A stretch of DNA of 64,000 bases, taken from the NCBI GenBank assembly GCA_016839765.1, contig JAEOTP010000034.1:1-64000 (forward strand), given 5' to 3'. This DNA comes from Promethearchaeota archaeon. GTDB lineage: Archaea > Asgardarchaeota > Lokiarchaeia > Sigyniarchaeales > SOKP01. The position numbers and the translations under genes were made by a program. This document shows positions 33,765 through 35,105 of this stretch, piece after piece (position 1 is the stretch's first letter; each line of letters begins with the position of its first letter). Under the pieces are notes generated by a model, which worked only from the letters and a program-made list of their open reading frames with translations, was not told the DNA's origin and did not search any database.

Positions 33765-35105
33765 ATGAGTAATAAAGTAAACACACTTGCTGTAATTGGG
33801 CTAAGTTGGGGAGATTAACGATGCAAAGAGCACGTAACCCTATATGAAGGAAAAGGAAAGTTTGTTGACTTCTTAGCCCAAAAATCTGATATTGTAGTAA
33901 GATTTAATGGCGGAAATAATGCAGGGCATACTATTAATGCCAATGGAATTAAATATAAATTCAAATTAATACCCTCTGGTGCTCCATTAGAAAAAGAATT
34001 AATAATTGGAAATGGATGTGTCGTTGATCCGAAGGTTCTTCTTGAAGAAATCGAAAATTTAAAAAAATTAAATAAAAAAGTTAACCTTAAGTTAAGCTCA
34101 ACTGCTCATGTTATTTTCCCATTTCATCGAATATTAGATGACTTAGAAGAAAAAACTAAGGGCGAATATAGTGCTGGAACTACAAAAAGAGGGATTGGCC
34201 CTACATACTCTGATAAAGCAGCTCGATGGGGTATAAGGATTTTTGATTTAATTTACCCTGAAATTCTAAAAGTAAAACTAGAGAGATTATTTAAAATTAA
34301 AAAGACATTAATTAACGTGTATGAGCCAGGCTGGAATATGGATTTTAATTCTGTTTATGAAGAATATAAAGATTATGGTGAAAAATTAAAGTCTTATGTA
34401 ATTGATACTGCATATTATTTGAATAAAGCCATAGATGCGGGTAAGAAAGTTGTTTTTGAAGGTGCTCAAGGCAGTTTATTAGGCATAGACCATGGAATGT
34501 ATCCTTTTGGAACCTCATCAAATGCTAATGCTTTAGGAATATGTGCTGGGACTGGAATTCCACCTAAAAAGATTGGGAAATTATATGGTATTATAAAGGC
34601 ATATACATCCAGAGTAGGAGAAGGTAGTATTCCTACTGAATTATTTAATGAAATCGCAGAAAAAATTAGAGAACAAGGGCACGAATATGGAACTGTTACA
34701 GGAAGGCCAAGAAGAGTAGGATGGCTTGACCTATTTAACATTAAATATAGCTTAATGATAAATGGAATTGATAGGATTATAATAACATTATTAGATGCTT
34801 TACAAGGTATTAATCCGATAAAAATCTGTACGGCCTACGAATTAAATGGAGAAATTCTTGAGAGCTGGCCAATTCAACATGAGATTATTGAAAAATGTAA
34901 ACCGATATTTAAAAAATTTAATGGATGGAATGAACTTCCCTCTGAAGAATGGTCAGAGATGGCAAAAAAAGGGTATGATGCACTACCTGAAACAATGAAA
35001 ATTTATATTCAAGCCATCAAAGAAGAATTAAGAACAGACATAGCAATGATTTCTATTGGACCAAATAGAAATGATACTATCGTTTTAGAAAAAGAAATAT
35101 TTTAA
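33765..35105 (+). CDS. purA: Adenylosuccinate synthetase, interrupted by a 30-nt putative intron: join(33765..33813,33844..35105), 436 aa
   Basis: ATG 33765 gives [16 protein letters not shown][[10 protein letters not shown]][10 protein letters not shown], then [64 protein letters not shown] in the same frame. The ORF track captured only 34317-35105. Confidence 0.95.
33814..33843 (+). other. Putative bulge-helix-bulge (tRNA-endonuclease-type) mRNA intron
   Basis: Central 4-bp helix GGGG(33808-11)/CCCU(33838-41) with 3-nt bulges AGA(33812-14) and AUA(33842-44). Cutting after the second nt of each bulge yields TGG GGA G|AT GAA GGA AAA GGA AAG = WGDEGKGK. The intron forms its own hairpin. Confidence 0.8.

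Follow-up and report, generated by a model that had tools for sequence, protein, structure and literature searches.

How is a PurA protein made from a gene whose reading frame stops after codon 17? The question is raised by the purA gene at 33765-35105 on the plus strand (ATG at 33765, stop codon at 35103-35105) of the window, the whole stretch of 64,000 nucleotides from a Promethearchaeota archaeon that was analysed here. We propose that a 30-nt insert in this gene is very probably a pre-mRNA intron, which would be cut by the splicing endonuclease EndA and ligated by RtcB.

The interrupted purA gene

At the edge of the insert, the codons TGG (33807-33809), GGA (33810-33812) and GAT (33813-33815, codon 17) are followed by an in-frame TAA (33816-33818), and the P-loop picks up again as EGKGK ten codons on. 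The preliminary description had reported this insert with its stop, and both are confirmed from the sequence. Removal of 33814-33843, as it had suggested, gives an open frame of 436 aa that includes WGDEGKGK; in this genome alone there are three 30-nt options, since deletion of 33815-33844 or 33816-33845 gives the same peptide. The split codon had been taken to encode the catalytic Asp; the split residue belongs to the WGDEGKGK motif, which is common to solved PurA structures. Asp13 of PurA has been described as essential (PMC12884076).

Unspliced RNA would yield a 17-residue peptide. The next in-frame start downstream of the insert is codon 185, where the longest called ORF begins, so that gene callers truncate purA, as had been anticipated. 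Exon 2 matches PF00709 at 1.5e-153, and this purA is the sole copy found in a 96%-complete genome that also encodes purB. The identical insert is present in four other genome assemblies and one metagenome contig, which makes an assembly artefact very unlikely. The features of the locus, with their predicted cuts, are as follows (a slash marks a junction here and below).

33765-33813, plus strand: purA exon 1 (Met1-Gly16 and the G of the catalytic Asp17 codon), matching intron-less relatives
33796-33805, plus strand: 5' arm of the distal exon-exon clamp, partner of 33872-33881, from sequence and folds
33808-33811, plus strand: exon strand GGGG of the central 4-bp helix, invariant in all intron-bearing copies
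33812-33814, plus strand: 5' bulge AG/A with the predicted EndA cut at 33813/33814, third base free
33814-33843, plus strand: putative BHB-type intron of 30 nt with the in-frame TAA at 33816-33818, from sequence and relatives
33815-33837, plus strand: intron hairpin (inner helix h') with the 5-nt loop AAAGA at 33825-33829, two-sided changes at all 7 inner pairs
33838-33841, plus strand: intron strand CCCU of the central helix, varying with pairing kept
33842-33844, plus strand: 3' bulge AU/A with the predicted cut at 33843/33844, second base free
33844-35105, plus strand: purA exon 2 (AT of Asp17 to the stop codon), from PF00709 and dN/dS
33872-33881, plus strand: 3' arm of the distal exon-exon clamp, within exon 2, from sequence and folds

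Elsewhere in the locus, the guanine-recognition motif in the C-terminal half of purA (window positions ~34790-34800) reads TLLD, for which we take TKLD to be the E. coli counterpart; intron-less L005 also has TLLD, which is therefore a family trait. Three neighbours were recognised by eye, all of them ordinary and with no link to the intron: a PmbA/TldD-like pair (29885-32615, minus strand), a PhoU-like gene with a PiT-type phosphate transporter (36378-38021, plus strand) and a tryptophanase/tyrosine phenol-lyase-like gene (39772-41154, plus strand).

Variable inserts in relatives and the bulge-helix-bulge geometry

We compared the site across the family, and found an insert between the G and the AY of the Asp codon in 29 of the 95 genomes read there. 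Nine of these belong to its own genus, 17 to a second, two to a third and one to a fourth, and such an insert was not seen in the other families of the same order or class that were searched. Counting both family genomes and metagenome contigs, 39 different inserts were found. Most (25) are 31 nt long, 10 are 30 nt and four are 32 nt, and identities to the insert of this genome go down to ~35%. Same-site variable inserts with compensatory changes, which the preliminary description had named as something to look for, are thus present in relatives. All 39 break the reading frame, by a stop codon or by a shift; an open in-frame insertion is not among them. Among the matches listed, near-identical inserts came from records labelled Promethearchaeota or similar Asgard names; bacterial matches among those listed from a GTDB pattern scan lay upstream of an intact purA and were rejected as chance. 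The only cut valid across all 39 inserts is G/AY, the unique solution in 21 of them, and the ambiguity of this genome is thereby settled for the excision of 33814-33843. G/AY is also the predicted EndA position, after the second base of each bulge.

The bulge-helix-bulge (BHB) geometry is kept in all purA inserts, and its stems covary. The helix 33808-33811:33838-33841, the bulges at 33812-33814 and 33842-33844 and the inner hairpin are as the preliminary description had drawn them. When the BHB is enforced, the insert folds with -7.2 kcal/mol, an energy that no shuffled insert out of 3000 reached, although such shuffle tests, like the counts that follow, overstate significance because the genomes are related. 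Among 24 aligned inserts, 93.8% of cells were paired versus 25-50% with slid partners, and two-sided changes were observed at all seven inner-helix pairs. In the central helix 98% of cells were paired, with all four pairs in 35 of the 39 inserts and three of four in the other four; three inserts have three G-U pairs in this helix, and its intron strand alternates between CCCU, CCCC, CUCU and CUUU with pairing preserved. The first pair of the intron-intron helix h', which closes the 5' bulge, is present in 37 of 39 inserts, and the 3' bulge opens with A in all 39.

In the exons, synonymous positions show constraint in intron-bearing genes alone. The first base of the 5' bulge, at the wobble position of Gly16, is A in 29 of 29 intron-bearing genes versus 20 of 65 intron-less ones. 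Exon-exon pairing by the 3' bulge was correctly noted before as weak, with three of the seven pairs of the outer exon helix that a strict hBHBh' structure has, and the purA motif therefore belongs to the relaxed class (HBh'/BHL). This genome has instead a distal 10-bp clamp, 33796-33805 with 33872-33881, ~28 nt downstream, which is an addition to the structure first described. The clamp core has eight of eight pairs in 14 intron-bearing genomes versus 2 of 66 intron-less ones, while 12 relatives have a perfect adjacent 7-bp helix that leaves a 2-nt 3' bulge. Taken together, a perfect exon-exon helix of one or the other kind was found in 26 of 29 intron-bearing versus 4 of 66 intron-less genes.

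Most purA genes of the family that have no intron are already self-complementary across the S-W-G-D-E-G codons, with 5-6 of 7 positions paired, and the site may therefore be predisposed to accept an intron.

Downstream of the stop, the dN/dS of purA is 0.08-0.24, compared with 0.06-0.16 for intron-less pairs, and the gene is under purifying selection despite the in-frame stop. A second, intact purA beside a copy under relaxed selection, which had been raised as a situation contrary to splicing, was not found in this genome.

The genome encodes two EndA paralogs and RtcB. EndA alpha has its best match in Aeropyrum EndA (3e-37), keeps the Tyr, His and Lys, and carries the broad-specificity loop with the KPR motif, a loop that confers cleavage of relaxed motifs (PMC3241643). 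The second paralog is without the His and, judging by its sequence, looks like a structural subunit. EndA is present in 31 of 31 family genomes, with two paralogs in most, and tRNA genes of this genome have inserts of ~17-49 nt, some of them outside the anticodon loop. We infer that in vivo the purA transcript would fold so that the exon GGGG pairs with the intron CCCU, leaving two 3-nt bulges. One side would be closed by the intron's own hairpin and, without an adjacent exon helix, the distal 10-bp clamp would keep the exons together on the other side for cleavage by EndA and ligation by RtcB.

We placed the presence of the intron on the purA protein tree, where at least nine changes are needed, five of them forced by strong branches. 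A single intron-bearing clade was rejected (AU p = 0.0004, on a quick tree with AMARA_1S left out). Since inserts from the two main genera can be aligned with each other, a single ancient gain followed by many precise losses is plausible. Clamp exons are kept without the intron in genomes G043 and G223. The purA of genome G226 (L174) looks mosaic, with a first exon and intron like those of G227 (0.97 and 0.81) and a remainder like G245/G253. This pattern points to recombination that moved the intron together with its flanks, or else to a chimeric assembly. Repeated loss of the intron is probable, and recombination may carry it along with the flanking sequence. For a donor, blastn and a covariance model gave no other copy in this genome, and the purA intron model matched no tRNA or other locus there; its two extra matches in relatives lie within intact frames and were rejected as chance. 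Reverse transcriptase PF00078 was not found in this genome, and therefore no local route for cDNA-mediated intron loss was seen. Most likely the intron persists as a near-neutral passenger, with the catalytic codon barring its imprecise removal.

Other interrupted genes and alternative explanations

Similar inserts were found in EF-1alpha, dnaG, rnhB, eS31, mvk and fwdA of the same genome, where the preliminary description had suggested looking for further BHB-interrupted genes. When the genome was compared, without use of the motif, with 800 kb from an outgroup, strongly supported gene-breaking inserts were identified in 2 of 194 genes, purA and dnaG, and breaking inserts with BHB geometry were absent from the 152 loci of the outgroup. 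The dnaG insert (G000 C17, minus strand 32113-32077, L272), found without the motif, is a 37-nt BHB insert at FGQ/TEG; inserts of 34-39 nt are present in dnaG of 11 genomes of the genus, and G026, from another family, has a 29-nt dnaG insert. EF-1alpha is interrupted by a 33-nt BHB insert in the P-loop Lys codon (G000 C57, plus strand 103567-103599, L268), which is shared by three genomes (this one, G019 and G018) and absent in the close relatives G013, G022, G010 and G020. A geometry check showed BHB geometry at the motif-restoring cut for the inserts in rnhB (G000 C52, 23898-23927), eS31 (G000 C51, 14793-14823), the mevalonate kinase gene mvk (G000 C96, 37300-37330) and fwdA (G000 C46, minus strand 3631-3602). 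A different rnhB insert at the same site in G202 was detected by the purA intron model.

A second purA insert, of 31 nt, lies right after the His of NAGH/T in AMARA_1S (G213, L429, ~1624-1654) and contig L356. The single excision that restores NAGHT has BHB geometry, with a helix of GGUC or GGCC with GGCU, and we take this His to be the equivalent of the catalytic His41.

A genome scan for frame-joining BHB inserts that used the motif only recovered purA, mvk, fwdA, EF-1alpha and dnaG, with counts not clearly above those of decoy geometries (19 versus 10 and 11; 9 versus 7 and 15). BHB shape alone is therefore weak evidence, and the prevalence rests on the sample of 2 of 194. The strongest de novo BHB match (G000 C43, minus strand 54197-54165, L275; 33 nt, -12.4 kcal/mol) lies in a short ORF that matches no Pfam family, and is a candidate only. 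The Pfk gene (G000 C22, minus strand ~40390-40420, L271) has a 30-nt insert with stops in IGG...DDT, in which strict BHB geometry was not recovered.

Many of the inserts in purA, dnaG, mvk, rnhB and EF-1alpha end in a stem whose 5-nt loop reads A-N-N-(U)-C or -A. This common form possibly reflects a shared origin or a recognition feature.

We consider it likely that, in this Lokiarchaeia-type family, mRNA maturation includes tRNA-type splicing as an obligatory step on a genome-wide scale. About 1% of conserved genes (2 of the 194 sampled) would carry ~30-nt EndA/RtcB introns, including the single-copy purA, EF-1alpha and dnaG, with rapid gain, loss and exchange and sometimes two introns per gene. 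Detectability may account in part for the bias of the inserts towards catalytic motifs.

Several other explanations were weighed for purA. As an addition to an EndA/RtcB intron, splicing might act as a regulatory gate, e.g., through GTP-dependent ligation by RtcB tuning AMP synthesis. GTP is used by both RtcB and PurA, and the intron is retained in four genera, but we regard such a role as doubtful, for most family genomes are without the intron, which is patchy on the tree, unrelated genes (EF-1alpha, dnaG, mvk) have similar inserts, and little of the intron sequence is conserved beyond structure.

The comparison of relatives points to precise excision and not to the identity of the enzyme, and the insert could in principle be removed by another nuclease and ligase acting on RNA, or by programmed DNA deletion in part of the population. 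The relaxed purA motif and the intron-less alleles with clamp exons (G043 and G223) would fit such removal. It is nevertheless quite improbable, given that the cuts coincide exactly with EndA geometry in purA (two sites), EF-1alpha, dnaG, rnhB, eS31, mvk and fwdA and that G-U pairs are tolerated, as in RNA. Conserved terminal repeats and recombinase sites are absent, and the flanking ORFs, read by eye, include no evident recombinase-like gene.

Translation without splicing, by ribosome bypass of the T4 gene 60 or byp type, stop readthrough or frameshifting, could be imagined from this genome, where the Asp codon GAT abuts a stop and a hairpin and resembles a take-off site. The relatives make it very improbable. 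In 23 of the 39 inserts the preceding codon encodes Val, Ala, Gly or Glu, and in 35 the one ahead of EGK encodes Tyr or Asn, so that take-off and landing codons mismatch; 29 inserts cause a +1 or +2 frameshift, and the next in-frame start comes only at codon 185. In most copies the Asp is made only by the joining of G and AY, which is a strong argument against readthrough and ribosome hopping.

That purA is a pseudogene, or the insert an assembly error, has next to no probability: the stop at codon 18 and the metagenomic assembly of the genomes would allow it, but the insert recurs identically in independent assemblies and contains compensatory changes, the sequence past the stop is under selection, and no second purA was found. 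A group I or II self-splicing intron was rejected, as 30 nt compares with a ribozyme core of >100 nt and no Rfam match rose above chance. IRE1-type introns (XBP1/HAC1) have two stem-loops with CNG/CNG loops at the junctions, and this type was rejected too, because the purA junctions GAG/AU and UAU/AU sit in bulges.

The EndA/RtcB intron is thus the reading supported by the same-site variable inserts, the covarying BHB, the cut at the EndA position, purifying selection and the presence of the enzymes; every comparative-genomics test argued for the spliced intron that the preliminary description had proposed.

Significance and comparison with known systems

Among prokaryotes, Asgard archaea are the most closely related to eukaryotes. 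If their core enzymes need splicing, they would have interrupted genes and post-transcriptional mRNA maturation via the tRNA machinery, and how a nucleus-free cell handles unspliced messages would become testable. If the genome-wide reading is true, ribosomes must tolerate or avoid unspliced messages without a nucleus. Because gene callers truncate such genes, metabolic reconstructions and marker-gene counts would be distorted. The purA gene is a good test case, being single copy, with 39 natural variants and a precise predicted junction. A 2023 review reported no evidence of eukaryote-like introns, meaning the spliceosomal type, in archaeal protein-coding RNAs (PMC10732040); inserts of the purA type are not spliceosomal. 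In the mostly open-access papers that our literature search covered, mRNA introns were reported neither for Asgard archaea nor for purA.

XBP1/HAC1 splicing also removes a small non-spliceosomal intron by protein enzymes and restores the frame, with ligation by RtcB in animals. It is stress-regulated, and IRE1 cuts two separate 7-nt stem-loops, with neither a BHB nor EndA, whereas the purA intron has BHB geometry and a predicted EndA-type cut. The likeness to XBP1 drawn in the preliminary description therefore holds for RtcB-type ligation and not for the cutting, and no homology is implied.

Non-canonical tRNA introns are abundant in Asgard archaea (PMC11291895; bioRxiv 10.64898/2026.10.13.758758). 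They resemble the purA intron in motif, size class, enzymes, repeated gain and patchy presence, but the host of the latter is an mRNA, a term absent from the main text of the tRNA-intron preprint (bioRxiv 10.64898/2026.10.13.758758). Action of EndA on a BHB in mRNA has been demonstrated in vivo and in vitro for the 5'-UTR intron of Haloferax HVO_1309 (PMC7714728), and is predicted from sequence for purA. The HVO_1309 intron lies in an untranslated leader and leaves the reading frame uninterrupted, whereas the frame of purA is interrupted.

The closest parallels were found with the cbf5 intron of Crenarchaeota, likewise a short coding-sequence intron with a BHB or relaxed motif (16-44 nt there, 30-32 nt in purA). 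A 2011 PNAS paper by Tocchini-Valentini reportedly may include further predicted archaeal mRNA introns. The cbf5 intron interrupts a catalytic Asp codon between the first and second bases (Watanabe 2002; Yokobori 2009, PMC2738675), as does that of purA, and both are variable in length and frame, patchy with losses, and accompanied by a two-subunit EndA. The two differ in gene and phylum, and splicing has been experimentally demonstrated for cbf5 and is predicted for purA, which here has a distal exon-exon clamp in place of the adjacent exon helix. The cbf5 intron has been described as the single case of a coding-sequence intron in archaea (PMC7714728), whereas at least seven genes of the present genome have such inserts, with two in the purA of one lineage. 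As cbf5 is the only archaeal coding-sequence intron confirmed in the searchable literature, purA would be another.
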